From Bacilli bacterium (GTDB lineage: Bacteria; Bacillota_I; Bacilli_A; RF39; UBA660), in contig JBBAFH010000003.1 of the NCBI GenBank assembly GCA_041655535.1, positions 4,081 through 68,080 on the forward strand: 64,000 bases of DNA. The letters are read 5' to 3'. The translations under genes were made by a program, and so were the position numbers. Below, piece after piece: positions 1 through 58,548 of the stretch (positions are counted from its first letter, which is position 1; every line of letters starts with the position of its first letter). The notes under the pieces were generated by a model. The model was given only the letters and a program-made list of their open reading frames with translations. It did no database searches and had not been told where the DNA came from.

Positions 1-3000
1 AATGAATTATTATCAACGTCTCTAATGTTTTTAGTAACAGTTACTTTTATTGTTCTAGTTTGTCTATACATACTATCAACTTCCGGATCAAAAATTATAT
101 ATGGACCGCTTTGTTCTAATACATTTACTTGTCTTATAACGCTTTTTTCAACACCATAATTACTTATAACTACATATTCTAATTGATATTCACCGACAAT
201 ATTAGTGTTTAAATTACCAGTTACTTTAATTAAGTGTGAAATATCACCGTCAACATCATCAATTGCCTTAGCGCCTAATTCTTGATACTTATCGCCAACA
301 AATATTTCGATTAATTCATTACCATTTAAAGTTAGGATTACTTCTGGTGCAACTACATTTACCCTTCTAGTAATCGCCTCTTCAGCACCATAATTACTTA
401 TCAACTTATATTCAACAGTATAATTACCAACAATTCCAGGTATAACATCTGATGTTATTTCAATTAAGTGAGAAATATCACCATCTATTTCATCAATAGC
501 TACTGCTCCTAATTCATTGTATGTTTCATTAACGTACATCTCAAGTGGATCATCGCCATTTAATGTTAAGGTTACTTTTGGTGCAACTACTTCAACAATT
601 CTTTTTTCAATTACTGCTTTTTCTAAATCAGGATCATCATAAATATATTCAATAGTGTATTTGCCAGCAATATTTGGATTTACTGTGCTATTAATGTGGA
701 TTCTATTTTTTACATCACCTAAAAGCTCATGAGTTGCAATAAACCCAGGTTCGCTATATTTTTCTTTAACATACATTTCATATGGATTATTACCAAGCAA
801 CTCAATTGTTACAGTTGGTTCAGTAACTTCGATTGTTCGGTATTTATATCCTGTTACTCCAAAACTATTGGTTACCTCGTATTTTATTTTGTTAGTTCCT
901 TTTTTAGTTGGATTAACATTTCCTGATATTTTTATATCACTTGTAAGGTCTCCATCTATTTCATCAAGTGCTGTTGCCCCTAATTCTTCATAAACGCTAT
1001 TTTTATATAATTTTACAAATTCATCACCAACTAAAGTAATTACTGGTGGTGGAGAGAAAACATTAACAGTCCTTGTAACCGTAGTTGTTTTTCCATTACT
1101 ATTTGTCGCACTATATTTTACTTGATATTTACCTAGTATAGAAACATTAATATTACTTTCTATTATTAATTTGTCAGTAAGATCTCCATCTATTTCATCA
1201 AAAACAGTTGCTCCTAATTCTTGATATGGTAATAAAACTCTATGCTGCATTGGGTTATCACCAATTATAGTGATTTCTGGTGGTGGAATATGGACTTCCA
1301 CATTTCTAGTAACAGTCGCTGTTCGACCATAGCTATTTTCTACTTCATAAACCACTTCATAAACACCGACGTTGTTGGTATCCACATTATTTTTAATCAT
1401 ACGAATTTTACTGGTTATATCGCCGTCTAATTCATCAGTAGCCCTAGCACCTAATTCATTATGAGCCCTACCTAAAACAACCTTTGTGTATTGGCTACCA
1501 TTTAACCATATTTTTGGTGTTGATATATACACATCAACACGTCTTGTTCTTTCAGTAGTATTACCTGCATCATCAGCAACTTTGTAGTTTATATAATAAT
1601 CTCCTTCAGTATAGACATCAACAAAACCACTGATTTCTATTCTATCAGTTAAACTAATTTCTTCACGACCACCATAACGCGGAAAATAATCAATAGCCCA
1701 CGCTCCTGGTTCTTTGTACTCTTTGGTAATTAATTGTTTCATAGGATTACTACCGTTTAAGTATATCACCGGTTTTCCATTATCTATTTTATAAGGTTTG
1801 CTCAATTTTATTCTAACATTCCCATGAATATCCCTTGCTAAAACATATACTCTATAATATCCACTAGTTTTTGGGCTTTTTATAGGAGTATTATTACTAA
1901 AGGGAGTCCTTATTAAATCCTCCAATGATGTATACAGCGGCATTCTCCAACCTTCACCAATCCACATGTACCTTAAACTATTTTCATCAACATCATATTT
2001 GTTTTTCGTAACTTCAACTAATGGGTCGTGATTATTAGCGGGCTTTGTATCACCATCTGGTGTAATTTGAATGAACGGACCATCATCAGGTAATATTTTT
2101 ATCGACCTCTGAACACTAGCTGTTGCCCCAAAACTATTTGTAACACTATATTTAATAGTATAACTGTATTGTTTTTCTTCTATAATTTCAGACTCATTTA
2201 TTTCCTTTTTTTCAACCTTGTAATCCTTATAACTTATTTTTATTGTTTTGAATTGAGTAATTAATTTTTCAATTTTGTATGTTAAATCTCCATCAACTTC
2301 ATCTGTTGCTGTTGCGCCCAATTCAGTATATTTATTTCCAATATAAACAATTGTTGGGTTGTCACCATTTAATATTATTTCTGGTCTTGGTGGTTCAACA
2401 ACTATTTTTCTTGAAACTGGTATTGCTGTTTTTCCATCCTTATTAGTTACTGTATATATTAACTCATAGACGCCTATTTCATTCACGTTCACGTTACCGA
2501 TTATCTTAATATCACTACTAATATCACCATAATATGGATCTAGTGCTACCGCACCTGGTTCAACATACTCTTGTTGTAAAGTGATTTTTAATGGATTGTC
2601 CCCATTTAAAGTTATAACAGGACTATCTTTAGGTGATACCATAATTGTTCTAATTACCATTGGAGCTTTATTACCATTGCTATCTGCAACATTATATCGA
2701 ATTTGATAAGTACCAGGCATATTAATATTTAGATTACTAGTAATATTAATTTTATCTGTAATATCACCATCTTCAGGATCATATGCCGTTGCTCCAAGTT
2801 CTGTATATGAATCACCTTCTCTTATTACGATTGTTTCTTGACCAATTAATGTTATTAATGGTTTGTTTTTTATATCAATCATATATTCTTCTAAAATATA
2901 AGGGTCATCTATTGTTCCTGTTCCTGCAAGGTATTGAACATTTTTATCAAGGTTAATTACAGGCCTTACTGAAATTACAGATGATTGAACAAGACCTGGT

Positions 3001-4073
3001 GTTACTTGTCCTATATTATTTACATACCAAGCTTTATTTGAAGTATCACTACTGGCATTCATCGTCCATTGGTGATACTTATTTTTGTATAGAAAATTAT
3101 TAATTTCACCCGCTGTATAAGCACATGGGTTTGTAGAACCACCTGTTTTGTAACTATTAACACAACTTGTATTTGAAGATGTGTACATAAAATCACTAGG
3201 ATTTATCAATCCTATCCCGCTTAACTCACTTAATCCACGGAAAAAGCCATAATTAGTTTCACTATCAATTCCCTCAGACTCACTAAATGTTTCAATATTG
3301 GTTGGATTATAAAACGGAACACCACCAATTTTCCAATTTGTTTCTTTAACATAATTATATTTATCAATAACTACTAAATTGTCTAACCAGTTATTAAGTT
3401 TATTATTTAGAGTACTTGTTTGAAATGGATTTTTACCAAATTCATCATACTGGATACCGGTTGTTGATGAGTGTAATGTACGTCCGTCTTCAATCGGAGT
3501 AGAACCCCCATTTTCAAGACCTTCAAAAACCAGTTTAATTCCACCATCATCAGTTTTTATTATTCTCCATAAAACACCATATACTGATTCTTGATCATAT
3601 CGGCCAAATAAAACCCAGTTGTTAGGATTTTCTCCAGTATAATAATCAGCACCATTTTTCTTCGTGGTGTCTTCTTTAGTATATTCGCTTGCGTTACAAT
3701 ACGTTGGACATATAATATGAGCTTTTGATTTAATTGTTTTTCCTTCTTTTTCAATTAAAACATAACCGTCACAAGCTGTTGTGTTATCTGTCGGATCAAC
3801 AACTTTTGTCACAAAGTGTTCTTCTCTTAACACTTTTAACGGAACATTTATAGTTACACCATCTTTTATTTGTCCACCTTTAACAGTTATATAATTTTCT
3901 GCAGCACGTTCTACCGATTTAGCATTTAAATCACAAACTCTTTGTCTAACAGCCCCGATAACATTGCCAATTATAGGGATAGATATTAACAAAATAATAG
4001 CAATTATAACTATCATTCCTAACAACTCAACTAATGTAAAACCTTTTTTATTGTTAAATTTATGGTTATTCAC
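1..4073 (-). CDS. Very large pilin-like surface protein, 3'-partial (runs off the window). It has a prepilin-type N-terminal cleavage/methylation signal, a ~390-aa Cys-containing globular region, and about 10 tandem Ig-like (DUF5011-type) domains
   Basis: Not in the ORF track because no stop codon lies inside the window. The reverse complement from GTG at 4073 (SD GGGGTGA at 4078-4084, in-frame TAA at 4095-4097) reads VNNHKFNNKKG/FTLVELLGMIVIIAIILLISIP, a class III signal with Glu at +5. The frame stays open for 1357 codons down to position 1. It contains ~79-aa units of the form P.ITLNGDNP......Y.ELGA.A.D..DGDL...I...G.VN....G.Y.V.Y.V....G......R.V.V. Confidence 0.85.
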   Translation of the reverse strand, partial: MNNHKFNNKKGFTLVELLGMIVIIAIILLISIPIIGNVIGAVRQRVCDLNAKSVERAAENYITVKGGQIKDGVTINVPLKVLREEHFVTKVVDPTDNTTACDGYVLIEKEGKTIKSKAHIICPTYCNASEYTKEDTTKKNGADYYTGENPNNWVLFGRYDQESVYGVLWRIIKTDDGGIKLVFEGLENGGSTPIEDGRTLHSSTTGIQYDEFGKNPFQTSTLNNKLNNWLDNLVVIDKYNYVKETNWKIGGVPFYNPTNIETFSESEGIDSETNYGFFRGLSELSGIGLINPSDFMYTSSNTSCVNSYKTGGSTNPCAYTAGEINNFLYKNKYHQWTMNASSDTSNKAWYVNNIGQVTPGLVQSSVISVRPVINLDKNVQYLAGTGTIDDPYILEEYMIDIKNKPLITLIGQETIVIREGDSYTELGATAYDPEDGDITDKINITSNLNINMPGTYQIRYNVADSNGNKAPMVIRTIMVSPKDSPVITLNGDNPLKITLQQEYVEPGAVALDPYYGDISSDIKIIGNVNVNEIGVYELIYTVTNKDGKTAIPVSRKIVVEPPRPEIILNGDNPTIVYIGNKYTELGATATDEVDGDLTYKIEKLITQFKTIKISYKDYKVEKKEINESEIIEEKQYSYTIKYSVTNSFGATASVQRSIKILPDDGPFIQITPDGDTKPANNHDPLVEVTKNKYDVDENSLRYMWIGEGWRMPLYTSLEDLIRTPFSNNTPIKSPKTSGYYRVYVLARDIHGNVRIKLSKPYKIDNGKPVIYLNGSNPMKQLITKEYKEPGAWAIDYFPRYGGREEISLTDRIEISGFVDVYTEGDYYINYKVADDAGNTTERTRRVDVYISTPKIWLNGSQYTKVVLGRAHNELGARATDELDGDITSKIRMIKNNVDTNNVGVYEVVYEVENSYGRTATVTRNVEVHIPPPEITIIGDNPMQHRVLLPYQELGATVFDEIDGDLTDKLIIESNINVSILGKYQVKYSATNSNGKTTTVTRTVNVFSPPPVITLVGDEFVKLYKNSVYEELGATALDEIDGDLTSDIKISGNVNPTKKGTNKIKYEVTNSFGVTGYKYRTIEVTEPTVTIELLGNNPYEMYVKEKYSEPGFIATHELLGDVKNRIHINSTVNPNIAGKYTIEYIYDDPDLEKAVIEKRIVEVVAPKVTLTLNGDDPLEMYVNETYNELGAVAIDEIDGDISHLIEITSDVIPGIVGNYTVEYKLISNYGAEEAITRRVNVVAPEVILTLNGNELIEIFVGDKYQELGAKAIDDVDGDISHLIKVTGNLNTNIVGEYQLEYVVISNYGVEKSVIRQVNVLEQSGPYIIFDPEVDSMYRQTRTIKVTVTKNIRDVDNNS
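115..2866 (-). repeat. Tandem coding repeats with a period of about 235-240 nt (~79 aa Ig-like modules), about 10 copies. They are interrupted at ~1790-2100 by a different beta-rich module
   Basis: The ELGA/EPGA motif (plus-strand gc.cctaattc / cctggttc) recurs at ~270, 505, 745, 975, 1210, 1450, 1705, 2315, 2555 and 2795. Copies have diverged at the DNA level. A module starting GP(F/Y)I occurs at ~2100 and again at ~100. Confidence 0.8.
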
Positions 4074-4166
4074 AACATCACCCCAATACACTTTTTATAA
4101 TTAATAATAATTCATAAAAAGTAACATTCTATCCTTAGTTTGTATATATATCATACCATAAATTCA

Positions 4167-4200
4167 TAAAAAAAAGGAAATAATTTATAAGTTATTTCCT
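4167..4200 (-). terminator. Rho-independent terminator after the secA-trx-PH operon
   Basis: Stem AGGAAATAA (4175-4183) pairs with TTATTTCCT (4192-4200), followed on the minus strand by a T-run (plus-strand A-run 4167-4174). An extended -10 (TGGTATGAT, minus strand) for the pilin-like gene follows. Confidence 0.6.
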
Positions 4201-4643
4201 TTTATATTTAATTCTCTATAAAGTTTTCTTTTTTCTTTCATCATATAATCGGTAAAAATATTTTCTATTTCTGGAAGGGCTCTCTTTTGAACATTTGATA
4301 AAGTTACCACTTCTTTAATTGTATCTATATGAACTGAACCCCATAAAATTCCCATTTGTACCTTTAAATCATTGAACATATCGGGCGTAATTGCGGTAAA
4401 GAAATATCCAAAGAAAACTCTTTTTTGACCTAATAAAATCCGTTTATCAGTAAGTGCAATTACATATGTTGTAAATATATCTAGGTGACTAGCGTTCTTT
4501 TGAGCCGCAAAAGCATATTTTACGTGTTCATCCTCATTTAAGTGAATATCAATAACTTTAGAATGTGCCTTTAATCTCCATGATATTGTCCATGGATATT
4601 TTTGTTTAAACTCTCTTACTTTTGAGTATACTTCACCTTGCAT
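4185..4643 (-). CDS. Bacterial PH-domain protein (YokE-like, bPH family)
   Basis: 152-aa ORF. The segment YVIALTDKRILLGQKRVFFGYFFTAITPDMFNDLKV...GSVHIDTIKEVVTLSNV resembles the bacterial PH fold family. Recognised by eye only. Confidence 0.5.
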   Translation of the reverse strand: MQGEVYSKVREFKQKYPWTISWRLKAHSKVIDIHLNEDEHVKYAFAAQKNASHLDIFTTYVIALTDKRILLGQKRVFFGYFFTAITPDMFNDLKVQMGILWGSVHIDTIKEVVTLSNVQKRALPEIENIFTDYMMKEKRKLYRELNIKGNNL

Positions 4644-4662
4644 ACTAAGCCCTCCTTCTTAA

Positions 4663-5499
4663 TTATTTAATAAATCCTTGTTCTTTAAATAATTCAATAT
4701 AATTTGCTTCTTCAGCTAATCCTACAATATTATCAAGTTCCTTATTATCCTGAACAATCATTGTATGCGGAGTACCAAACTCTTCCATACCAAATCCTTC
4801 AAGAGTTTCAATAAATGCAGTATATTCATCATTGTCAGAAATCTCATTAATTTCAATAACATTGATAGTAATTTCTTTTTCTTTTGCTATTTTATTTAAA
4901 ATTGGTTTTGCTGCAGTACAATATGAACATGTGGTTTGACTTAAAACAACAATACTTTTTTCTTTGTTCTTAACTAATTCTAAATACTCTTTAACATCAA
5001 TAAAGTTTAAATCAGCAGTGCTTTCATTGTTTGCTTTTTCATCTGTTATTTCTTTAGGTTCAGCGTCTTTATCTAAAAATTCACTTTCTTTTAATTGTTC
5101 AATTAATTGATCAGCATTTAAATACCCAGCTTTCCCAAAAACCTTTTCACCTTTATTACTAATAACTAAATAAGGTGTTCCAAAATCTTCTTCATCAATA
5201 TTGAAACTACTAAGTAAATCTGCTCGTTGTTGACTTGTCAAATCTAATATATCTATATAAGTATATTCAAAATCATATTTTCTTGATGTATCATCTATAA
5301 TAGGATTAAATTGAGCACAATAACTACAATCAGAGCTACCAATATAAATTAAACTACTTTTCTCGTTTTTATAAGTTTGATTAACATAATCAATAATTTT
5401 TTTACCATTAGTATGTTTAATATACATTGATAATGGTAAAAGTGCCACGATAGCACATATCACTAATAAGGTTATTGTTATTTTTTTTGTTTCATTCAT
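4663..5499 (-). CDS. Membrane-anchored protein with two thioredoxin-fold domains (two CSYC active sites)
   Basis: N-terminal TM helix (ITITLLVICAIVALLPLSMYI). Two CxxC motifs sit in Trx-like contexts: SSDCSYCAQFNP and QTTCSYCTAAKP, each followed by a GTP motif. Confidence 0.7.
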   Translation of the reverse strand: MNETKKITITLLVICAIVALLPLSMYIKHTNGKKIIDYVNQTYKNEKSSLIYIGSSDCSYCAQFNPIIDDTSRKYDFEYTYIDILDLTSQQRADLLSSFNIDEEDFGTPYLVISNKGEKVFGKAGYLNADQLIEQLKESEFLDKDAEPKEITDEKANNESTADLNFIDVKEYLELVKNKEKSIVVLSQTTCSYCTAAKPILNKIAKEKEITINVIEINEISDNDEYTAFIETLEGFGMEEFGTPHTMIVQDNKELDNIVGLAEEANYIELFKEQGFIK

Positions 5500-5510
5500 T
5501 TAATACACCT

Positions 5511-8003
5511 CTATTTTCCATGGCAATGTTTATATTTTTTTCCACTTCCACATGGACATAATTCATTGCGTCCTGTTTTTTCAACTTTTTTAGGAGTTCT
5601 TTTAACTGGTTTATCACCATCATTAGCTACTTCTGTTTCAACAACTTTCTTTCTTTCGATATTTTGTCTAATTTCAGAATTTAATAAATATAATGTAATT
5701 TCACGATCAATTGTGTTTAACAGGTTATCAAACATTTCATAACCTTCATTAGTATAAGCTCTTAAAGGATTTTCTTGTGCATATCCTCGTAAGTGAATTC
5801 CTTCTTTTAAATGAGCCATAGTATTAATATGTTCCATCCAATACGTATCAATTACACGAAGGGCGATTGCCTTTTCAAATTCACTCTTAATTTCTTCTGG
5901 AACACTAGATACCTTTTTATCATATTCAGCAATCATTTTTTCAGAAATATAATAAACTATATCATCAGGCAATTTATCTTTTATTTCATCAATAGTAATC
6001 GCATTTCTTAAAAATTTGGTGTTAACCATTTCTAAAATTTCAGATAAATCTGTATCAGTTAAAATCGTAGTTTCCACTAAGTGACTCATAACTAATTCAT
6101 CAACATAATTAGTGAAATTGTCAGCAACCATTTCATATATTGACGGAAAGTCTAATATTTCATTTCTTTTTTCATAAATAATCTTACGTTGTTGATTAAT
6201 AACATCATCATATTGTAATAAAGTTTTTCGAACATCGAAGTTATTTCCTTCAACTCGACGTTGTGCAGATTCAATCATCTTAGCAAACATTGAATTACGA
6301 AGCGATAACTCTCCATCAAAACCAACTTTTTGTAGCATCACTTTAGCGCGATCAGTTCCAAAGCGAACCATTAAATCATCTTCAAATGAAACACAGAATT
6401 GTGACATCCCAGGGTCACCTTGACGACCAGAACGTCCTCTTAACTGATTATCAATTCTTCTTGATTCATGTCTTTCGGTACCTATAACACAAAGACCACC
6501 AATTTCTTTTACTTCAGCACTTAATTTAATGTCAGTACCACGACCAGCCATATTAGTAGCAATTGTTATTGCACCTTTTTGACCAGCATTAGCAATTATT
6601 TCTGCTTCTCTCGCATGATTTTTAGCATTTAAGATTTCATGTGAAATTTTTTCTTTTTTTAATAAAGAACTAATATATTCACTAGTTTCAACAGCAATGG
6701 TTCCAACTAGTACTGGTTGTCCTGTTTCATGTCGCTCTTTAATTTCTTTAACAATTGCTTTAAACTTACCATCTCTAGTAGCAAACATTAAATCTCCGAA
6801 ATCATCACGAACTACTGGAACATTGGTTGGAATGCATATAACATACATGTTATATATTTCGCGAAACTCTTCTTCTTCTGTTTTTGCAGTACCTGTCATA
6901 CCAGATAACTTTTTATACATTCTAAATAAATTTTGGAATGTAATTGTTGCTAAAGTTTTTGTTTCTTCACCAATTTCAACACCTTCTTTAGCTTCAATAG
7001 CTTGGTGGAGTCCATCAGAATAATTTCTTCCTTGCATTAAACGTCCAGTAAATTGATCTACAATAACAATTTTCCCTTCTTCAACCACATAATCGAAATC
7101 CCTTTTCATTGTGTAGTTGGCACGTAATGCTTGGTTAATATAATGAACTAAAGTAGTATTGTTTAAATCAAATAAATTTGATAAACTAAATTCTTTTTCA
7201 GCACTTGAAATACCAGTTTCATCTAAAGCAACAGATTTAGTTTTTTCATCATATATAAACCCATTATTTTCTTTAAGTGTTTTTACAAAACGATCAGCTT
7301 GAATATATAAATTCGATGATTGTAAGAAACCACCAGAAATTATTAAAGGAGTTCTTGCTTCATCTATTAATACTGAGTCAACCTCATCTATAATAACAAA
7401 ATTTAATGGTCTTTGAACTCTATTTTCGGCTTTTACAACCATGTTGTCTCGAAGATAGTCAAATCCTATTTCGTTATTAGTAGAATATAAAATATCACAA
7501 GCATATGCTTCTTTCTTCTCACTAGGAGTTAAGTCACGATGATTGACCCCAACTGTTAAACCTAAAAAGCGATAAATATTTCCCATCCAATTCGCATCAC
7601 GGTCAGCCAAATATTCATTAACTGTAATTATATGAACTCCTTCACCGGTTAAAGCATTTAAGTAAGCTGGCATGGTTGAAGTTAAAGTTTTACCTTCTCC
7701 TGTTTTCATTTCGGCAATATTGCCGTAGTGAATTGCTAACCCACCAACTAATTGAACATAATATGGCTTTTCACCAATTACACGAAATGCTGCTTCACGA
7801 ACTACAGCAAAAGCTTCTTCTTTAACATCTTCTAAAGTTTCCCCTTTTTTTATTCGTTCTTTGAATTCTTCGGTTTTATTTTTCAACTCTTCATCACTAA
7901 GTTTACTTATTTTTTTGTCGAGTTTTTCTATTTCATCAGCTATTTTTTGAAACTTTTCAAGTTCTTTGTATTCATGATCAAATATCTGTTTAAAAAACTT
8001 CAT
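5511..8003 (-). CDS. secA: Preprotein translocase ATPase SecA
   Basis: 830 aa. Contains the Walker A motif MKTGEGKT, DEVDSVLIDEARTPLIISG, and the C-terminal zinc finger CPCGSGKKYKHCHGK. Confidence 0.97.
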   Translation of the reverse strand: MKFFKQIFDHEYKELEKFQKIADEIEKLDKKISKLSDEELKNKTEEFKERIKKGETLEDVKEEAFAVVREAAFRVIGEKPYYVQLVGGLAIHYGNIAEMKTGEGKTLTSTMPAYLNALTGEGVHIITVNEYLADRDANWMGNIYRFLGLTVGVNHRDLTPSEKKEAYACDILYSTNNEIGFDYLRDNMVVKAENRVQRPLNFVIIDEVDSVLIDEARTPLIISGGFLQSSNLYIQADRFVKTLKENNGFIYDEKTKSVALDETGISSAEKEFSLSNLFDLNNTTLVHYINQALRANYTMKRDFDYVVEEGKIVIVDQFTGRLMQGRNYSDGLHQAIEAKEGVEIGEETKTLATITFQNLFRMYKKLSGMTGTAKTEEEEFREIYNMYVICIPTNVPVVRDDFGDLMFATRDGKFKAIVKEIKERHETGQPVLVGTIAVETSEYISSLLKKEKISHEILNAKNHAREAEIIANAGQKGAITIATNMAGRGTDIKLSAEVKEIGGLCVIGTERHESRRIDNQLRGRSGRQGDPGMSQFCVSFEDDLMVRFGTDRAKVMLQKVGFDGELSLRNSMFAKMIESAQRRVEGNNFDVRKTLLQYDDVINQQRKIIYEKRNEILDFPSIYEMVADNFTNYVDELVMSHLVETTILTDTDLSEILEMVNTKFLRNAITIDEIKDKLPDDIVYYISEKMIAEYDKKVSSVPEEIKSEFEKAIALRVIDTYWMEHINTMAHLKEGIHLRGYAQENPLRAYTNEGYEMFDNLLNTIDREITLYLLNSEIRQNIERKKVVETEVANDGDKPVKRTPKKVEKTGRNELCPCGSGKKYKHCHGK

Positions 8004-8096
8004 TTTTATCTTCCTTTCTTGTACATATCTATTTTATCAAAAAAAGGTAAAAAATAATAGTTTTATATAGCAAACTTATAAAAAAGGCTTTAAAGC

Positions 8097-8633
8097 CTAA
8101 TTTGTTGTTATAATACCATAATTATTATCTTTTCTCTTATAAACGATACAAATTTTACCACTTTTGTCCTCAAGATAAACAAAAAAGTCATGGTCAATTA
8201 AATTCATTTGTAAAATAGCTTCTTCTTCACTCATTGGTTTCATTTCAATGCTTTTTCTTTTAACTACTTTATTTTCTTCTTTCTCATATTCTTTATCCGT
8301 TTTAAAATTAGTTACTAATTCCTTTACATTAGCACGATTCACTTTTTTATTCATTCTAGTTTTATTTTTTCTAATTTGTCTTTCTAACTTTTCACTAACT
8401 AAATCAATTGCAGCATATAAATTTTTATCCTCTACTTCAGCACGTAGAATTACCTTGTTAAGATGAATTGTGACTTCAACTATTTGTTCAACACCACGAA
8501 TCTTAACTACAACATTAGCGGTTATATTATCAGAGTTTTCTAAATAACGACCGAGTCTCCCTATTTTATTCTCAATATAATCATTAATTGCCTCAGTTAT
8601 TTTTACTTTGTTTCCACGAATATTAAATTTCAT
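8097..8633 (-). CDS. hpf: Ribosome hibernation promoting factor, long form
   Basis: 178 aa. N-terminal RaiA/HPF domain (MKFNIRGNKVKITEAINDYIENKI) plus the C-terminal dimerisation domain (KPMSEEEAILQMNLIDHDFFVY). A terminator hairpin lies at ~8080-8098. Confidence 0.9.
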   Translation of the reverse strand: MKFNIRGNKVKITEAINDYIENKIGRLGRYLENSDNITANVVVKIRGVEQIVEVTIHLNKVILRAEVEDKNLYAAIDLVSEKLERQIRKNKTRMNKKVNRANVKELVTNFKTDKEYEKEENKVVKRKSIEMKPMSEEEAILQMNLIDHDFFVYLEDKSGKICIVYKRKDNNYGIITTN

Positions 8634-8700
8634 AATATCATCCTCCTATAATAATTATAGCACAATCAAACAAAAATATAAATAAAAACAAAAAAAACTG

Positions 8701-8913
8701 CTAAACAAGTGCAGTTTTAATTTCTATAACATTTTTTGCTTGTAATCCCTTGTCAGTTCTTACTAGTTCGAACTCAACATATTGTCCTTCGACTAGAGTT
8801 TTATAGCCAGACGACAGGATTGCAGAATAGTGAACAAAGATGTCTTCTTCATCGCTATGTTCAATAAATCCAAAGCCTTTATCGTTATTAAACCATTTAA
8901 CTTTACCTCTCAC
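8701..8913 (-). CDS. Cold-shock protein (CspA family)
   Basis: GTG start with SD AAGGGAGAG. Contains [15 protein letters not shown] and the VHYSAI RNP motifs. 70 aa. Confidence 0.95.
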
Positions 8914-9160
8914 AAATAAACTCTCCCTTCTAGTATCATTACATTTTAAATATACCCTCTATGAATGCAATAATCAATAAAATGGGAAAGTCAAATTCCG
9001 ACATTTTTTTAGTTATTGCGAAAATGGATTTGTTATATAATCAAAAGATCCCGACAAAAAATATTTTACTCGTTTTTAATTTTTTTTAAATATCAAATGC
9101 TCGAAATGCCCACTTTTACGTTCAAAATGCATTTTTGATGTTTTTTTAGGACCCTTTTTT

Positions 9161-9196
9161 GCATTTGAGACACATAATCGGCCATTTGGGACATAA
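9161..9196 (+). promoter_or_regulatory. LytTR-type direct-repeat operator upstream of agrBD
   Basis: GCATTTGAGACAcataatcgGCCATTTGGGACATAA. The 9-mers GCATTTGAG and CCATTTGGG are separated by 12 bp (21-bp register) and lie immediately upstream of the putative -35. The same block recurs at 46247-46282 on the minus strand. Confidence 0.65.
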
Positions 9197-9199
9197 AAC

Positions 9200-9228
9200 A
9201 TTACAGATTAAATTTTATATGATATAAT
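9200..9228 (+). promoter_or_regulatory. Putative sigma-A promoter of agrBD
   Basis: -35 TTACAG (9200-9205), 17-bp spacer, -10 TATAAT (9223-9228). SD GAGGTG at 9234-9239. Confidence 0.5.
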
Positions 9229-9246
9229 TTAACTGAGGTGTGATAT

Positions 9247-9870
9247 TTGTTGAAAAATCAAGTTTTAAATACTTTATTAAACTTTATTAAAAAACATTAT
9301 CCAAACTATACTAAACAACAAATGTTAACTATTAAATATGGATTAGAGGGAATTTATATAACAATTACTAAAACCATTATAATATTCCTAATAGCTATAT
9401 ATTTAAATTTATTTGTAGATCTTATAATTTTAATGTTATTTTATACTTTATTAAGAATGTTTTCATTTGGATTACACGCTAATAATAGTCTAGTATGCCT
9501 AGTTGCATCATCTACTCTATTTATAGGAGCAACTTACTTATGTACAATATTAACTATTAATTTACAAATCAAATTAATTTTAGCAGTTATATCAATTATA
9601 TTTTTTTATAAATATTCACCCGCTGATACTACGAAAAAACCAATCAATAATATTAAAAGAAGAAATAATTATAAATTACTATCAACAATTACTGCGATAA
9701 CTTATAGTTTTATTATAGTTTTTTCAAATAATCATTTTATTGCAAATACTCTACTATTTTCATTAGTTATTCAATCTTTTTTAACAACACCTTTGGCATA
9801 TAAACTTTTTAATCAGCAATATAATAATTACTTGCAATATAAAAAAGGAAAGGAGGTTGGTTGTGATTAA
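9247..9870 (+). CDS. agrB: AgrB-family propeptide-processing membrane endopeptidase
   Basis: TTG start. 207 aa and polytopic. Conserved R..S.G.HA.....C signature (LLRMFSFGLHANNSLVC). Immediately followed by an AgrD-like peptide gene. Confidence 0.85.
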   Translation: MLKNQVLNTLLNFIKKHYPNYTKQQMLTIKYGLEGIYITITKTIIIFLIAIYLNLFVDLIILMLFYTLLRMFSFGLHANNSLVCLVASSTLFIGATYLCTILTINLQIKLILAVISIIFFYKYSPADTTKKPINNIKRRNNYKLLSTITAITYSFIIVFSNNHFIANTLLFSLVIQSFLTTPLAYKLFNQQYNNYLQYKKGKEVGCD

Positions 9871-9985
9871 ATTTTTAGCTTTGGCTTTAAGTTCACTGGC
9901 TTATGTTGCTGCTAATACATTCACAACTGCTTGCATGTTTCTGTGGTTAGACGAACCAGAAACACCAGATTTCTTAATAAAATAA
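9863..9985 (+). CDS. agrD: AgrD-like autoinducing peptide precursor (40 aa)
   Basis: Not in the ORF track (too short). GTG start 6 nt after SD AAGGAGG (9850-9856), overlapping the agrB end by 8 nt. Translation is MIKFLALALSSLAYVAANTFTTACMFLWLDEPETPDFLIK: an amphipathic leader, a single Cys, then an acidic EP..P tail as in known AgrD peptides. Confidence 0.8.
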   Translation: MIKFLALALSSLAYVAANTFTTACMFLWLDEPETPDFLIK

Positions 9986-9994
9986 GAAATAAAA

Positions 9995-10020
9995 AAAATG
10001 TAGGAATATTTCTACATTTT
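9995..10020. terminator. Bidirectional terminator between the convergent agrD and kinase genes
   Basis: Stem AAAATGTAG (9995-10003) pairs with CTACATTTT (10012-10020). It is flanked by an A-run on the left and a T-run on the right. Confidence 0.6.
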
Positions 10021-11304
10021 TATTTTAATTTTTTGTTTAAATACATCTCTAACAAATTCCCTTTCAATCGAAATTCGTTCGTCTTTATCAATTATTATTT
10101 TGACTAAGCTTAATCCGTATCCCCGACCTTTACCTTTACTAGAATACCCTTCATCATCCATTCTTTCTAAATCAATCGAACCTTGAAAGTTATTAGAAAC
10201 ACAAAAATAGAAATCATTTCCTTCTTTATATAAATAAATACCAATTGCTTTCATTTTTAAATCTTCAATCGCTTCAATAGCATTATCAATTATAATGCCA
10301 GCAATTGCACATAAATTTTTATTTAACTCAAAATCAAAATTCTTGTAACTATTAGAGTATATATTTTTGCTAATTTCTAAATTACAACTAATTCCCTTTT
10401 CCTTCATAATTAACATTTTTTGGTATATTAATCCTTGAAATCCACCAGAAGGAAGGCGTTTTGTTTTAGTTAGAATTTCATCATCATCTTTTTCCTTTAA
10501 ATTAATAATTTCATCAATATGATTAATAATGTCACTGTTTTTTTTAGGTATCATTCCTTTTAGAACAATAAAGTTGTTTTTGTTTTCATGATTAGTTCTT
10601 CGATATTTTTCAAGAATTTTTTCATATTCTGTTAAATCATTAATTAATTTATTATATTCTTTTTTTAAATTGCTATGGTAATTTTTTTCCAAACTTATGT
10701 TTATTACTAGAAAAGTAATAATAATTATTAGAATTACACTTAAAATCATCGCTAATAAAACATCAAGTTTAAAATACATATAATAAAAGAAAACGGAATA
10801 GATCAACACAATAAGCGCTAAAATAGGAAGAATTTCAAAAACACCTTGACTCCTTCTGTTTTCAGTCACACTTCCAAAAAAATGAACGATCTGTTTTACA
10901 TTAATTAAAATAATCATTATCAATGCAATAAGTATATTAAGCCAAAATCGTCCAAGAAAAGCTTCACTTAAAGTCGTTGGTTCTATCTTTAACAACATAA
11001 CTAAAATAATAGCAACTATTATTTCGGAAACGGTTATTAAAACAAATACAAAAAAACTTCCAATAATGACATTAATAATTTTTTTCTTGAAGTATAATTT
11101 ATTTAATATTATTAACACTATATAATTTATTAAAACACGTATATAATGTTTTGTTGCTATAAACAATATTGTCATTAGAATTGTATTAATAAGTACAACC
11201 AACCAAAATTCTGTTTTTTTATAGTCAATTTGTTCTTTAAAGATTCTAGAGGATACATAAAAACATGCTAATGAAATTATAAAACTACTTAATAAATAAG
11301 TCAT
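10012..11304 (-). CDS. agrC: AgrC/ComD-like (HPK10) membrane sensor histidine kinase
   Basis: 430 aa. About 6-7 N-terminal TM helices, the H-box RRTNHENKNNFIVLKGM, and a C-terminal ATPase motif GYSSKGKGRGYGLSLV. Overlaps the upstream regulator gene by 4 nt. Confidence 0.85.
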   Translation of the reverse strand: MTYLLSSFIISLACFYVSSRIFKEQIDYKKTEFWLVVLINTILMTILFIATKHYIRVLINYIVLIILNKLYFKKKIINVIIGSFFVFVLITVSEIIVAIILVMLLKIEPTTLSEAFLGRFWLNILIALIMIILINVKQIVHFFGSVTENRRSQGVFEILPILALIVLIYSVFFYYMYFKLDVLLAMILSVILIIIITFLVINISLEKNYHSNLKKEYNKLINDLTEYEKILEKYRRTNHENKNNFIVLKGMIPKKNSDIINHIDEIINLKEKDDDEILTKTKRLPSGGFQGLIYQKMLIMKEKGISCNLEISKNIYSNSYKNFDFELNKNLCAIAGIIIDNAIEAIEDLKMKAIGIYLYKEGNDFYFCVSNNFQGSIDLERMDDEGYSSKGKGRGYGLSLVKIIIDKDERISIEREFVRDVFKQKIKIKM

Positions 11305-12008
11305 AGCTTTGATACCTCTTTTTTATATTTAGGACTCAACCAATCTATCTCAACTCCAGTATCAAAAGTTATTTTTTTCTTAGCTAAATTGACAATTGAT
11401 ACTCTAGTAGAATTAATAATACATGACCGATGTGATTGGACAAATACATCACCTAACATTTCAGACATATCCATTAGTGTTTTATTTACACTAAGTTGTG
11501 AATAGTCAGTATTTATAATAACCTTTCGCTCGATACTATCTCTGGTTATATATAATATATCATTAATTGGTATGGTATATATAGCTCCTCTATCTTCAAA
11601 ACGAATTACTCCTTTTTTTCCTAAAACATCCAGAGCTTTAGAAATAGATTTACTTAAATGTTTAGGATAGTCATCATACTTATTTATAAAAGATAAAAAT
11701 AAAAATTCATTTTTTAAAATAGTATATCCCAGTTCATCGTGTGATGTTAAAAAGATAATAACGCTTTCAATATCAATTTTTCTAATTACTCGAGCTATAT
11801 CGATTCCTGAAGAAGATGGAGTTTCGATATCCAATATATATATTCTGAAAGGTAACTTTGAACGCATTAATTTCATAAAACTATTATCATAATCATCAAA
11901 CAAATGACATTGATATTCCATTTTGTTTTTTAACATTTCTTCATCAATAATAGAATTAATTTGATTTAAAATTTCTGCATTGTCATCACATACAACAAAA
12001 TTAACCAT
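11301..12008 (-). CDS. agrA: LytTR-family response regulator (AgrA-like)
   Basis: The start is most likely ATG at 12008 (MVNFVVCDDNAEIL, SD GAGGTG). The track ORF start at 12083 adds an implausible extension. Receiver domain plus a C-terminal LytTR domain (IYTIPINDILYITRD...VQSHRSCIINSTRV). Confidence 0.9.
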   Translation of the reverse strand: MVNFVVCDDNAEILNQINSIIDEEMLKNKMEYQCHLFDDYDNSFMKLMRSKLPFRIYILDIETPSSSGIDIARVIRKIDIESVIIFLTSHDELGYTILKNEFLFLSFINKYDDYPKHLSKSISKALDVLGKKGVIRFEDRGAIYTIPINDILYITRDSIERKVIINTDYSQLSVNKTLMDMSEMLGDVFVQSHRSCIINSTRVSIVNLAKKKITFDTGVEIDWLSPKYKKEVSKL

Positions 12009-12175
12009 TAACACACACCTCAAATCACGTTCGCTCATCGCAAAACTCCACTTAATATTACCATATACTGGTAAAAATTGCAATATTAAAAATTTATTTT
12101 TTAATTCATCTGATGTTTCTTTATTTGAAAAAGAAATTAGACAAAAAATCTAATTTCCAATATATTTTAATACAA

Positions 12176-12876: not shown

Positions 12877-12953
12877 TGGTGGAGAATAAGGGACTCGAAC
12901 CCTTGACCCCCTGCGTGCAAGGCAGGTGCTCTAGCCAACTGAGCTAATTCCCC
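12877..12953 (-). tRNA. tRNA-Ala(UGC)
   Basis: The reverse complement starts GGGGAATTAGCTCAG. Anticodon loop is CTTGCAC. It has the G3:U70 pair, a T-arm GGTTCGAGTCC and an encoded CCA. A hairpin plus T-run lies downstream at ~12822-12843. Confidence 0.95.
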
Positions 12954-13752: not shown

Positions 13753-13828
13753 TCTTCACCTCAACATAATCTACGATTTATTAATATAAAAAGCACACAA
13801 ATTAATATCGTATGCTTTGTTGACTATA

Positions 13829-13905
13829 TGGTCGGGAAAACAGGATTTGAACCTGCAACCCCTTGGTCCCAAACCAAGTGCACTACCAAGTTGTGCTATT
13901 TCCCG
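13829..13905 (-). tRNA. tRNA-Pro(UGG)
   Basis: Reverse complement CGGGAAATAGC...; anticodon loop TTTGGGA; encoded CCA. Confidence 0.95.
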
Positions 13906-13908
13906 TTA

Positions 13909-13985
13909 TGGCGCGCCCGATAGGAGTCGAACCCATAACCTTTTGATCCGTAGTCAAACGATCTATCCAATTGATCTACGGGCGC
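13909..13985 (-). tRNA. tRNA-Arg(ACG)
   Basis: Reverse complement GCGCCCGTAGATCAATTGG...; anticodon loop CTACGGA; encoded CCA. Confidence 0.95.
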
Positions 13986-14004
13986 AAGATCGTCAATATT
14001 TAAA

Positions 14005-14080
<76 letters not shown>

Positions 14081-14083
14081 AAA

Positions 14084-14159
14084 TGGCGGTCCCGACGAGA
14101 ATTGAACTCGCGATCTTCTGCGTGACAGGCAGACGTGATAACCGCTACACCACGGGACC
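14084..14159 (-). tRNA. tRNA-Asp(GUC)
   Basis: Reverse complement GGTCCCGTGGTGTAGCGG...; anticodon loop CTGTCAC; encoded CCA. Confidence 0.95.
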
Positions 14160-14162
14160 ATA

Positions 14163-14239
<77 letters not shown>

Positions 14240-14258
14240 ATATTAATTTAAATAAAAT

Positions 14259-14349
14259 TGGCGGAGAAAGAGGGATTCGAACCCCCGCGCCGTTTCCGAC
14301 CTGCTGGTTTTCAAGACCAGTCCCTTCAACCAGACTTGGGTATTTCTCC
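14259..14349 (-). tRNA. tRNA-Ser(UGA)
   Basis: Reverse complement GGAGAAATACCCAAG...; anticodon loop CTTGAAA; long variable arm; encoded CCA. Confidence 0.95.
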
Positions 14350-14381
14350 ATATTTTATATAAATCACAAAAAAAATTTAAA

Positions 14382-14470
14382 TGGTGCCTAAGGCCGGAAT
14401 TGAACCGGCACGAGAGTTGAGTCTCGCAGGATTTTAAGTCCTGTGCGTCTACCTATTCCGCCACTCAGGC
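14382..14470 (-). tRNA. tRNA-Leu(UAA)
   Basis: Reverse complement GCCTGAGTGGCGGAA...; anticodon loop CTTAAAA; long variable arm; encoded CCA. Confidence 0.95.
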
Positions 14471-14479
14471 AAAAAAGAA

Positions 14480-14555
14480 TGGTGTCCCGTACAAGATTCG
14501 AACTTGTGACCCTTTGATTAAAAGTCAAATGCTCTACCAACTGAGCTAACGGGAC
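14480..14555 (-). tRNA. tRNA-Lys(UUU)
   Basis: Reverse complement GTCCCGTTAGCTCAGTTGG...; anticodon loop CTTTTAA; encoded CCA. Confidence 0.95.
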
Positions 14556-14567
14556 AAAAATTAAAAA

Positions 14568-14642
14568 TGGCTGCCTCGGCTAGATTCGAACTAGCGCATG
14601 CCACAGTCAAAGTGTGGTGCCTTACCGCTTGGCTACGAGGCA
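14568..14642 (-). tRNA. tRNA-Gln(UUG)
   Basis: Reverse complement TGCCTCGTAGCCAAGCGG...; anticodon loop CTTTGAC; encoded CCA. Confidence 0.93.
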
Positions 14643-14657
14643 ACATACCAACATAAA

Positions 14658-14741
14658 TGGTGGAGGGAGATGGATTTGAACCATCGAACCCGAAGGAACA
14701 GATTTACAGTCTGCCGCGTTTGGCCACTTCGCTATCCCTCC
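14658..14741 (-). tRNA. tRNA-Tyr(GUA)
   Basis: Reverse complement GGAGGGATAGCGAAGTGG...; anticodon loop CTGTAAA; long variable arm; encoded CCA. Confidence 0.95.
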
Positions 14742-14743
14742 AA

Positions 14744-14820
<77 letters not shown>

Positions 14821-14821
14821 A

Positions 14822-14898
14822 TGGTGGGCAATGTAGGACTCGAACCTACGACCCCCTGCTTGTAAGGCAGGTGCTCTAACCAACTGAGCTAATCACCC
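14822..14898 (-). tRNA. tRNA-Val(UAC)
   Basis: Reverse complement GGGTGATTAGCTCAGTTGG...; anticodon loop CTTACAA; encoded CCA. Confidence 0.95.
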
Positions 14899-45686: not shown

Positions 45687-45714
45687 AGTAAAAAAAAGCG
45701 TAATTAACGCTTTT
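45687..45714 (-). terminator. Rho-independent terminator after comK
   Basis: Minus strand reads AAAAGCGT-taatt-ACGCTTTT followed by TTTTAC. An extended -10 (TGTGATATAAT, minus strand) for recF follows. Confidence 0.6.
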
Positions 45715-46162
45715 ATTTGTTTTTTCTCTGTCTCAATATTGATTCAAGCCTTGAAGCTCTCAAAACTTGATTTTCAAAAGAAGAATATGAGATAGGAATT
45801 TCTAATGATGTTCCATTTTTAAAGTAAATAATAGTATTATTTTTTTCTTTCTCATAATGAGAAACTTTATTCAATGAGAACCATGAGCATTCAGACGAAC
45901 GTGCTGATCCTGTTGGAAAGAAAATTATTTCTCTACTCTCTTCAATTATTATAGGGGATTTGTATATTGTTCCACCTAAAAAGTGTTTGCTGCCCTCAAA
46001 TCTGCCTAAATAAGAACTTCCGAAATAACGACAACTATCATCAATAATTTTTGGAGTTACACGTTCTACGATAAAACTACCATCATCTTCGATAATTTTA
46101 CTTTTTTGATTATCAAGTGCAATTATTGCAATAGTTGATAAATTAATTTCATATTTTTCCAC
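45713..46162 (-). CDS. comK: Competence transcription factor ComK
   Basis: YEINLSTIAII, SCRYFGSSYLGRFEGS, IIFFPTGSARSSECSW and LEIPISYSSFENQVLRASRL align with B. subtilis ComK (SCRFFGSSYAGRKAGT, IFLFPTLSS...CGW, LPISYNSFENQVYRTAWL). The likely start is GTG at 46162, 8 nt after AGGAGG. The track start at 46171 overlaps that SD. Confidence 0.85.
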   Translation of the reverse strand: MEKYEINLSTIAIIALDNQKSKIIEDDGSFIVERVTPKIIDDSCRYFGSSYLGRFEGSKHFLGGTIYKSPIIIEESREIIFFPTGSARSSECSWFSLNKVSHYEKEKNNTIIYFKNGTSLEIPISYSSFENQVLRASRLESILRQRKNK

Positions 46163-46246
46163 TAATTTCACCTCCTACTAATATAATTCGACAAATAAAT
46201 CGAATTTCCTTCCTATCATATAATATTTTTTTTTGTTTTTGGGCAA

Positions 46247-53315: not shown

Positions 53316-54314
53316 ATGGAAATAATTAGTTTTGCGCTTAGAGGAAATTATAAAAGATTTTACAATGATTTAAAAACAATTAGTAAAAAAAATGGGAAAA
53401 GTCCGTTTCTAATGTTTAGCGATACTGTATTATCAACCCTATTTTTAGGTAGTGGTATGCAAGATTATTTGAATTATCGTTTTTATGAGAGATCTTGGAA
53501 AGAAAGAAAAGAATATGCGACAATTGGTTACTTATCAAAATTTTATGAGAAAGCAGCCAACATTAAATATGCTCCATTTATTTCTACTAAGACAAACTTT
53601 TTTAAAAATTATGGTGAATTTACCAAAAGAGATATGTATGACCCTGAGGATGGATATAATAAGTTTTTAGAATTTATAAAAAAACATAAAGTTTTTATAA
53701 AAAAGCCTACAATCGGTTTAGGTGGCGACGGAATAACTAAAGTGGAAACTAAACAAATTAAAAATACTAAAAAATTCTATAAAGAAATTAAAGAAAATAA
53801 AATGTATTTAGAAGAATTTATTATTCAAAATAAAGACTGGGGAAAAATTAATCCAGGAAGTGTTAACACAATAAGAGTTATGACTTCAGCGATTAATGGG
53901 AAAGTTGATATTTTCTTTATGGCTGCAAGAATAGGCCACGGAGATAGTGTTGTTGATAATTTTCATGCAGGTGGTTTATCAACCTTGATTGATATTGAAA
54001 AAGGAATACTAAAAGGACCAGGGTATACAAAAAAACTTGAAAAATCCAATGTTCACCCTCTAACAAAAGTAGTGATTGATGGTTATAAAATACCTTATTT
54101 TGAAGAGATAAAAGAAATGGTTACAAAAGCAGCTTTAGTTAATGATAAAATTCATATTGTTGGATGGGATGTTGCTATTACTGATAAAGGCCCTTTAATT
54201 ATTGAAGGAAATCGAGGCCCAGGTTGGGATTTGGTTCAAATTCTTTTAAATAAAGGTGGAAAATATATGTTACGGAAAATCGAAAAAGAAATGAAAGATC
54301 ATAATTTATGGTAG
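53316..54314 (+). CDS. ATP-grasp protein of the sugar-transfer-associated (ATPgrasp_ST) / alpha-L-glutamate ligase-related type
   Basis: 332 aa. Contains FIKKPTIGLGGDGI, NTIRVMT, DNFHAGGL, and IVGWDVAITDKGPLIIEGNRGPG, typical of that family. Recognised by eye only. Confidence 0.6.
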   Translation: MEIISFALRGNYKRFYNDLKTISKKNGKSPFLMFSDTVLSTLFLGSGMQDYLNYRFYERSWKERKEYATIGYLSKFYEKAANIKYAPFISTKTNFFKNYGEFTKRDMYDPEDGYNKFLEFIKKHKVFIKKPTIGLGGDGITKVETKQIKNTKKFYKEIKENKMYLEEFIIQNKDWGKINPGSVNTIRVMTSAINGKVDIFFMAARIGHGDSVVDNFHAGGLSTLIDIEKGILKGPGYTKKLEKSNVHPLTKVVIDGYKIPYFEEIKEMVTKAALVNDKIHIVGWDVAITDKGPLIIEGNRGPGWDLVQILLNKGGKYMLRKIEKEMKDHNLW

Positions 54315-57048: not shown

Positions 57049-58548
57049 GTGGAAAACGATAAAAAAATTGTTAATTTAAATTTGGATGATATATTGCCTA
57101 ATAGATTCCAACCAAGAATTAAATTTGACGAAAAAGCTATTAATGAATTAGCTGGTTCTATAAAAGAACACGGTGTAATTCAACCAATTTTAGTTAGAGA
57201 AATTGGTGATAAATACGAAATAATCGCTGGTGAAAGAAGATATAAAGCTAGTACTGTTGCGGGGTTAGAAAAAATACCAGCTATTATTAATAATTTAAAT
57301 GATCATGATAGTGCCGAAGTTGCACTTATTGAAAATATTCAAAGAAAAGATCTAACACCTATTGAAGAGGCAATATCTTATAAAAAAATATTGGATATGG
57401 GGTATTTGAATCAAGAGTCATTAGCATCAAAGATTGATCGTAATCAATCAACGATTTCAAATAAATTACGATTACTTAATTTAGATGATTTAGTACAAGA
57501 GGCATTATTAGATAATAAAATATCTGAAAGACATGCTCGTTCTTTACTTAGACTATCGGATAAAACAAAACAACAAGAAATGTTAAACAGAATTATTGCC
57601 GAACGTTTAACAGTTAGAAGAACTGATGAAGAAATCGATAAATTGTTAGATGTTGTAAGCAAACCTGAAGAAAATCGAAATGAGGAAATAAAAATGAATA
57701 ATCCATCTCAAAAAGATATTTTCAACATGCCATCAACACCAATAATTGAAGAAATAGAAATTTTTGATGATTTTGAAAATATTGATGAACAACCAGCGAT
57801 AGTTTCTTTTCCGAAAAATGAGATTGAAGAAACAAACTTTAAACCTGGTTTTTTAGATATTGATAAAATCGAAAAAAATGCTGAGGAAATTCATGTTGAA
57901 AAACCAGTGGCAGACTTGGATAGTTTGTTAAAATCAGATGAACAATTTGCTGATTTAAACTCTGTTCAAAATGATCCGATTATTGAGCCACAGGTAACAG
58001 AAGGAAAATTCTTTAGTTTTGTTACCAACGATGTTAATAACCTTGGAACCAAAGAATATGATGATGGAAAGTTCAATGATTTTGATTTCAAAATAGATAA
58101 CGTAGAAACTACACAAAATTTAAATACTGAGGAAACAGACGTGAAACCAATAACTATTGAAGAACCAATAAACCCTGAAATTAATTATAATATTGAACCA
58201 GATATTCAACCGACAGCAAATAATGATTTTTCTAATAGTAACTATTTTGATAATATTCAACCTGATTACAACTTTAATTTTGATGAAGAAGAAACAACAG
58301 AAGCAATAGGAGAACCTAAAACCGACGTTAATGAATTCGAATCAGTTGAACCGAATTATAATATCCCAGCCGTGAATGATTTAGATTCTGCTAGCATTGA
58401 AAATAATTCAGGAAATTTTCAAGAAGTTATAATGTATGCTAGAAGCTGTGGGAAAAAGATTGAAGAACTTGGATATTTTATAGATGTTGACGAAGTAGAT
58501 TTTGGAGATAAGTATCAAATTACTTTTAAAATTAGTAAAATTAAATAA
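57049..58548 (+). CDS. noc: ParB/Noc-family protein (Noc-like by position) with a long acidic insertion
   Basis: GTG start with SD AAGGGAGG. Contains the ParB N-domain motifs LPNRFQPR and GERRYKAS, the HTH motif QSTISNKLRLL, and ISERHARSLL. The C-terminal ...FGDKYQITFKISKIK resembles the Noc C-terminal end. It is 499 aa, against roughly 280-290 aa for typical Noc. Confidence 0.75.
   Translation: MENDKKIVNLNLDDILPNRFQPRIKFDEKAINELAGSIKEHGVIQPILVREIGDKYEIIAGERRYKASTVAGLEKIPAIINNLNDHDSAEVALIENIQRKDLTPIEEAISYKKILDMGYLNQESLASKIDRNQSTISNKLRLLNLDDLVQEALLDNKISERHARSLLRLSDKTKQQEMLNRIIAERLTVRRTDEEIDKLLDVVSKPEENRNEEIKMNNPSQKDIFNMPSTPIIEEIEIFDDFENIDEQPAIVSFPKNEIEETNFKPGFLDIDKIEKNAEEIHVEKPVADLDSLLKSDEQFADLNSVQNDPIIEPQVTEGKFFSFVTNDVNNLGTKEYDDGKFNDFDFKIDNVETTQNLNTEETDVKPITIEEPINPEINYNIEPDIQPTANNDFSNSNYFDNIQPDYNFNFDEEETTEAIGEPKTDVNEFESVEPNYNIPAVNDLDSASIENNSGNFQEVIMYARSCGKKIEELGYFIDVDEVDFGDKYQITFKISKIK

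Follow-up and report, generated by a model that had tools for sequence, protein, structure and literature searches.

We analysed a 64,000-nt stretch from an uncultured Bacilli bacterium (contig JBBAFH010000003.1, assembly GCA_041655535.1, positions 4,081 to 68,080; hereafter the window) and found the 5′ part of a giant gene on the minus strand at its left edge (positions 1-4073). The best reading of the gene product is a giant modular type IV pilin acting as a fibrillar adhesin, either at the tip of a filament or anchored by its own pilin module. An earlier annotation made from the letters of the window (the sequence-only reading) had suggested a pilus-tip adhesin or a pilin-signal-anchored fibril, and these are still the two live options. 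That the giant modular pilin is used as the priming or tip subunit of a filament is a view we hold tentatively, with nearly as much weight for it as against it.

The frame is open from the GTG at 4073 to position 1, and its translation gave 1,357 codons with no stop, as had been reported. It is missing from the list of open reading frames (ORFs) because it runs past the end of the window, in line with the earlier explanation of a stop outside the window. The window matches the end of contig k141_1274299 (179,326 bp) in the European Nucleotide Archive (ENA) with 100% identity. There the frame runs on past position 1 by at least another 1,506 codons and is stop-free to at least 2,863 codons, so the gene reaches far beyond the window edge. 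Recovery of the gene from the adjacent sequence, which had been proposed as a check, gave this extension; the C-terminus lies beyond the contig break. The contig breaks within two units of about 890 nt that encode GLUG repeats and are 91% identical at the nucleotide level, which accounts for a break inside the gene. Two other assemblies also break inside the GLUG repeats, and the sequence of the gene is identical in three independent assemblies. In full, the gene should have roughly 4,000 or more codons.

The N-terminus reads MNNHKFNNKKG|FTLVELL: Gly stands at -1 and Glu at +5, and the Phe at +1 opens the hydrophobic tract FTLVELLGMIVIIAIILLISIPII. The class III (prepilin) signal with Glu at +5 was thus read correctly before. 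The basic leader MNNHKFNNKKG (residues 1-11) occupies positions 4041-4073 of the minus strand, on which all coordinates of the giant gene lie, and cleavage is predicted after Gly11. The hydrophobic α1-N tract (residues 12-35) occupies 3969-4040, with the codon of Glu+5 at 4026-4028. Against its cutoff of 21.2 bits, the Pfam model N_methyl (PF07963) reached 22.5 bits when the first 400 aa were searched, but the 1,357-aa fragment gave 20.7 bits. A phmmer search of the PDB matched a Geobacter pilin (E = 1e-4) and the PAK pilin (E = 0.015, over residues 12-124). The motif [G/A]|FTL[V/I/L]E was kept in all 13 of the 13 family members, which are otherwise 25-60% identical, and F+1 and E+5 were invariant. 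Two other proteins carry the DUF6273-like module that follows the pilin part (see below) on different anchors: P0006 has it behind a plain transmembrane (TM) anchor, with neither the Gly-Phe junction nor the buried Glu, and the protein of locus L012 combines it with a classical signal peptide and a C-terminal TM segment. The retention of the motif in 13 relatives, set beside these two proteins, argues that it is under selection for prepilin-type handling.

The next region (residues 36-135, positions 3669-3968) was modelled as a head with pilin-like topology and contains Cys47, Cys101, Cys122 and Cys126. The AlphaFold2 model of residues 1-141 had a mean predicted local distance difference test (pLDDT) score of 77 and consisted of a helix of 52 residues (14-65) followed by four β strands. 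The four head cysteines are conserved in all giant homologs. Cysteines of the 2,863-aa partial protein are found nowhere outside the head and the two DUF6273-like modules, where their positions are conserved.

Behind the class III signal and the head, the rest of the protein is one continuous extracellular chain: a DUF6273-like module, a stalk of immunoglobulin (Ig)-like domains with interspersed modules of about 105 aa, another DUF6273-like module and, most distally, an array of GLUG units. A globular region of about 390 aa with cysteines had been described after the signal. The region is real, but it comprises two modules, the head (36-135) and the first DUF6273-like module (residues 136-397, positions 2883-3668). 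The latter runs from YYTGENPNNWV via LWRIIK and VRPVINL to GTGTIDDPYIL and recurs at residues 1505-1745. Copy 1 had no direct match in Pfam and copy 2 scored 20.3 bits with PF19789 (cutoff 23.5), whereas related modules in P0002 (24.4 bits), P0008 (35.5 bits) and a protein of locus L010 (26.4 bits) scored above this cutoff. According to the literature on DUF6273, module 1 is presumed to be C-type-lectin-like. The two copies are the best conserved regions between orthologs (copy 1, 96%; copy 2, 94%). A profile of the module found nothing among PDB sequences. The structure model of residues 1-400 had a pLDDT of 53 and its DUF6273-like part was unusable; the top Foldseek match of this model (9qa6, E = 4e-3) serves as a lead only. 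We also considered the module as a target of a diversity-generating retroelement (DGR). This was rejected: the window has neither a second copy of the module DNA nor a reverse-transcriptase (RT) candidate, and the module is the best conserved part of the protein.

Ten stretches of the window translation matched the Ig-like domain PF16403, formerly DUF5011 (E = 2e-149). A self-built hidden Markov model (HMM) also counted ten repeats, between residues 407 and 1318 with a period of 78-80 aa, in agreement with the previous estimate of about ten DUF5011-type repeats. Twelve such domains are present in the 2,863-aa partial protein. Domains 1-3 lie at 2094-2855, the third with an insertion of about 30 aa, and domains 4-10 lie at 120-1766. 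Two modules of a different kind had been noticed among them. The first (GPFIQITPDGD...) lies at 1767-2093 and the second (GPYIIFDPEVD...) starts at 119 and is cut by the window edge at position 1. They proved to be homologous (38% identical, E = 5e-21), and a third copy follows past the window. The three copies of this unnamed module of about 105 aa are 32-38% identical to one another (E = 4e-10 to 7e-24), and none matched Pfam or NCBIfam. From residue 1923 onward, GLUG units of about 410 aa follow in tandem.

The gene is real and conserved, being collinear in three species. In the metagenome-assembled genome (MAG) 'Bacilli bacterium STF2_219' (locus L006), the ortholog is 94% identical over the first 400 aa and has the same secA-thioredoxin-bPH neighbourhood. 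It has at least 3,733 codons across a gap of 100 N and is still stop-free where the locus ends. The ortholog in locus L009, from the Joint Genome Institute (JGI), is open for at least 2,655 codons, up to the end of its contig, and is short of about two of the Ig-like repeats 4-10. By region, the identity of the window gene is 77-96% with L006 and 60-81% with L009, and both orthologs are collinear with it over the whole length. A homology search with the L006 segment behind the gap returned only GLUG proteins of at most 38% identity.

More distant homologs came from an exhaustive profile search of cluster representatives. The profile was contaminated by Ig-like columns, and most of its 108,526 matches were generic Ig-repeat proteins; therefore, only matches beginning at the N-terminus were used. 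Five other representatives had such a match. P0252 (2,717 aa) is identical with the window protein, truncated by a contig end, and the remaining four have 2,047-4,608 aa. The longest, P0258 (locus L013, about 50% identity or less), is encoded by a complete gene of 4,608 codons, directly followed by other genes. It has the same module order as the window protein, with about seven GLUG units, and ends after the last one. C-terminal features of the family were read from this homolog only. The complete sequence of P0258 lacks LPXTG and HExxH motifs, and outside the N-terminal segment none of its hydrophobic runs is as long as 15 residues. Thus, the N-terminal pilin-like segment is its only visible anchor. 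For this homolog, the absence of LPXTG speaks against a sortase-anchored surface protein.

A second class of giant proteins with prepilin signals has 2,047-2,416 aa (L013 24961-31893, P0259, P0262 and P0263) and shares the head, the DUF6273-like and the Ig-like parts. A Gly-rich region ('...GNGYAKITY') forms the C-terminus in at least three of them, namely the L013 paralog, P0259 and P0263. The L013 paralog has 2,310 aa, a Gly-rich C-terminus and, in the Pfam list, ALK_LTK_GRD (PF12810). Its gene stands in tandem with that of the 4,608-aa protein, about 1 kb downstream. The family also has short versions of 335-560 aa with a pilin signal and DUF6273. In locus L007, seven consecutive genes lie beside murG/murB (1259-11584); most have Laminin_G_3, and the first is incomplete at the end of the locus. 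Five of them (345-947 aa) gave a match to KKG|FTL[V/I]E in a motif scan, and the 527-aa P0005 has LG|FTLVE instead. Small lipoproteins flank the giant genes in two lineages (L009 30-365; L013 24413-24781 and 31929-32042). They are homologous (45% identity, E = 6e-26) and duplicated in L013, with no homolog in the window. A relationship of these lipoproteins to the pilin head was rejected (BLASTP E = 1.9).

The GTG start at 4073 is supported by a Shine-Dalgarno-like GGGGTGAT at 4077-4084 of the minus strand, 3 nt ahead of it, and by the L006 ortholog, which keeps the same arrangement (GAGGTGG followed by GTG). The gene had been said to have its own promoter. This is plausible from a candidate extended -10 element, TGGTATGAT (4150-4158, minus strand), which is within a 19-nt block, TTTATGGTATGATATATAT, identical in L006, whereas the flanks diverge; in L013, TGGTATAAT is found upstream of P0258. 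However, a generic promoter scan of the AT-rich spacer upstream of the gene gave results at chance level. A terminator-like weak hairpin with a run of eight T follows the upstream bPH gene (4167-4200, minus strand; -8.2 kcal/mol). It is not significant by itself (z-score -0.95), and a terminator scan made no call there.

If the protein is used by a filament, it would be inserted through Sec and the signal recognition particle (SRP), and a prepilin peptidase whose gene lies in another part of the genome would cut it behind Gly11. The processed protein would then prime a filament of the Com type or type IV, or form its tip. Its bulk would fit only at the filament tip. The filament would present a fibre of perhaps 100 nm or more, by rough estimate, which might bind glycan or protein ligands. 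Several results weigh against such a role. Two other pilin models scored below their cutoffs (NCBIfam TIGR02532, 9.6 against 16.3; ComGC, 33.6 against 75), and Foldseek with the head model found no pilin in the PDB (best E = 0.78). No gene for a prepilin peptidase, an assembly ATPase or a platform protein was found in about 78 kb of the source contig, which extends the earlier statement that the window has no pilus machinery. Such genes were also absent within 6-10 kb of the homologs in L007, L010 and L013 and from the 1.7 kb upstream of the L009 copy. The occurrence of the DUF6273-like module on the anchors of P0006 and L012 means that its display needs no filament. To our knowledge, no pilin of such size has been shown to assemble into a filament.

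These points bear on the strongest rival, in which the pilin module is a membrane anchor only. The α1-N helix would hold the protein, inserted with or without cleavage by a prepilin peptidase, and the fibre would thread the cell wall with no filament involved. Such a protein would resemble archaeal sugar-binding proteins with class III signals. We regard this as a serious possibility that falls somewhat short of likely. The giant gene and its relatives stand as orphans among housekeeping genes, with no machinery genes around them, and the five N_methyl-type genes in tandem in L007 also have no machinery nearby. The same cargo module occurs on a plain TM anchor (P0006) or with a Sec signal and a C-terminal TM segment (L012), and loading about 0.5 MDa of cargo onto a pilus seems difficult. 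However, the strict conservation of F+1 and E+5 and of the four-Cys head would be costly for a mere anchor, and P0006, the relative with a plain anchor, has lost just these features.

It is also conceivable that the protein is a pilin-signal-tethered surface enzyme of the M26 type (ZmpA/B/C, IgA1-protease), which we consider highly improbable. The GLUG motifs scored 87 bits and Peptidase_M26_N 26.7 bits (cutoff 27.7). The weak top Foldseek match is the T. ramosa IgA peptidase, and Raynaud et al. list N_methyl together with IPR011493, a module described as M26-type (PMC8179133). However, neither the 2,863 aa known for this gene nor the complete homolog of 4,608 aa contains an HExxH motif, no catalytic domain was matched in Pfam, and the M26_N match is limited to the GLUG-bearing region. 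Even less credible is a pseudogene or an assembly artefact: the contig does end within the gene and the L006 ortholog has a 100-N scaffold gap, but the 2,863 codons are stop-free at 28% GC, the sequence recurs in three independent assemblies, the orthologs are collinear with 60-96% identity by region, the complete 4,608-aa homolog has further genes directly after it, and the GLUG units, 91% identical in nucleotides, account for the contig break.

The window and 10 kb beyond it contain rpmH, dnaA, dnaN, comK, recF, gyrBA, secA, hpf, an agr-like locus and a tRNA cluster; the context is one of housekeeping and oriC-region genes. The immediate upstream neighbour of the giant gene encodes a bPH_3 protein of 152 aa (4185-4643, minus strand). 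Next comes a gene for a membrane-anchored protein with two thioredoxin-fold domains (4663-5499, minus strand; weak PedC/BrcD-like and TrbB-like matches). The giant gene had been placed beside the double thioredoxin gene; the latter is indeed nearby, but the bPH_3 gene intervenes. Both genes stand between secA and the giant gene, an arrangement kept in L006. Neither gene accompanies the L009 or L013 homolog, which gives no indication of a functional link to the giant gene.

A ComK homolog (148.9 bits) is encoded at 45713-46171 (minus strand), between dnaN and recF. This place in the origin region is believed to be unusual for a competence regulator. ComK is an indirect hint of pilus machinery: only by analogy with Bacillus subtilis does it render a prepilin peptidase of the Com type plausible. 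A complete agr-type quorum-sensing locus (9247-12083) lies at a distance of about 5 kb from the giant gene and is present in the STF2_219 locus as well. It consists of an agrB-like gene (9247-9870, plus strand), a 40-aa ORF that is a candidate AgrD (about 9863-9985, plus strand; called in locus L001), a histidine kinase gene with HATPase_c_5 (10012-11304, minus strand) and a gene for a LytTR response regulator (11301-12083, minus strand).

Three other features of the window were noted. A cluster of 12 tRNA genes lies at 13829-14898 (minus strand), with a separate tRNA-Ala gene at 12877-12953 (minus strand); the plus-strand ORF at 13817-14125 was rejected as a gene, being an artefact of translating tRNA genes. 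An ATP-grasp gene (ATPgrasp_ST; 53316-54314, plus strand) is inserted between mnmE and mnmG. Upstream of uvrB, an unusually long protein of 499 aa with ParB_N and HTH_ParB (57049-58548, plus strand) is encoded in addition to the regular parA-parB pair.

If the N-terminus is truly processed, the modular pilins would extend about five-fold beyond the 860-aa extreme of the 2021 survey discussed below. It would also raise a mechanical question, namely how a pilus machine or a cell wall could cope with about 0.5 MDa in a single subunit. A GyrB search returned only MAGs of uncultured bacteria, labelled 'Bacilli', 'Mollicutes' or 'Bacillales bacterium'; one of these relatives, with 89% identity in GyrB, is on a contig of 1.36 Mb. 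If the genomes of this lineage are about 1.36 Mb, they would devote about 1% of their length to a single gene of 12-14 kb, suggesting that attachment is important for such bacteria. Both conserved DUF6273-like modules are good candidates to be screened for ligands. We propose with some hesitation, and would not yet call it likely, that uncultured small-genome Bacilli use a pilin module as the sole anchor of adhesins of about 0.5 MDa, either in a filament primer of 4,000-4,600 aa, which would mount a fibre on a filament, or through a stand-alone prepilin anchoring route of Gram-positive fibrillar adhesins that present anchor lists lack.

Among known systems, the modular pilins are the closest in design. 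We take IPR032179 and IPR011493 to be the InterPro counterparts of PF16403 and GLUG, respectively. Raynaud et al. surveyed 1,219 modular pilins with 264 architectures, and their table includes N_methyl with IPR032179 and N_methyl with IPR011493 (PMC8179133). They defined a modular pilin by an N-terminal IPR012902 motif and at least one domain that is not specific to pilus biology (PMC8179133). The window protein has N_methyl with 12 PF16403 domains, two DUF6273-like modules and GLUG units, and so falls within this definition. The fusion of a pilin signal to a long stalk had been called very atypical. This was not upheld, as modular pilins are a described class; only the size and the number of modules are unusual here. 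The most extreme modular pilin singled out in the survey has 860 aa (PMC8179133), as compared with at least 25 modules in at least 4,000 residues in the present family.

The Streptococcus sanguinis pilins PilB (vWA) and PilC (lectin) have an N-terminal IPR012902/N_methyl module with non-pilus domains attached C-terminally, as the window protein does. In both cases the host is monoderm and the cargo is predicted to be adhesive. A further likeness is a lectin-type module, presumed in the window protein, directly behind the pilin module. However, PilB and PilC have one extra module each and are encoded in a pil locus, whereas the window gene is an orphan and its product a putative filament subunit. 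PilB has been modelled at the pilus tip (PMC8179133). CofB of enterotoxigenic Escherichia coli (ETEC), Thermus ComZ and GspK of the type II secretion system (T2SS) also combine a pilin module with bulky domains and have been proposed to sit at the filament tip (PMC8179133). They differ in having a few hundred residues, in being encoded with their machinery and in extra domains unrelated to those of the window protein.

Other likenesses concern the cargo. The first module belongs to or borders on DUF6273, and a weak Foldseek match of the low-confidence model points to 9qa6. Unlike in the DUF6273 system compared, no M64 peptidase domain is present here, the window has no DGR template copy or RT candidate, and the module is conserved rather than hypervariable. 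Tandem GLUG units are shared with GLUG surface proteins and with the N-terminal region of ZmpA/B/C (M26), from which the giant protein differs in lacking a catalytic domain and in having a pilin module as its anchor. The 471 GLUG homologs with E ≤ 1e-30 carry varied partner domains, including SLH, dockerin and the tail of the type IX secretion system (T9SS).

In overall shape, the window protein is similar to the fibrillar adhesins of Gram-positive bacteria, which are single long chains with a tandem Ig-like stalk and putative binding modules (PMC8286594). The survey of these proteins by Monzon et al. (2021) searched for anchors such as LPxTG sortase motifs, SLH, LysM, choline-binding, GW and PG_binding domains, among others; pilin and N_methyl are not mentioned among them (PMC8286594). 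The anchors of Gram-positive fibrillar adhesins were placed at the C-terminus, and nearly half of the predicted fibrillar adhesins had no recognised anchor (PMC8286594). Judged from its domains, the giant protein fits this architecture of stalk, putative adhesive region and anchor, with an anchor of a type outside the survey list. If its N-terminus is indeed processed, the known anchoring modes of fibrillar adhesins would gain one of pilin type that sits at the N-terminus and so has the reverse polarity.

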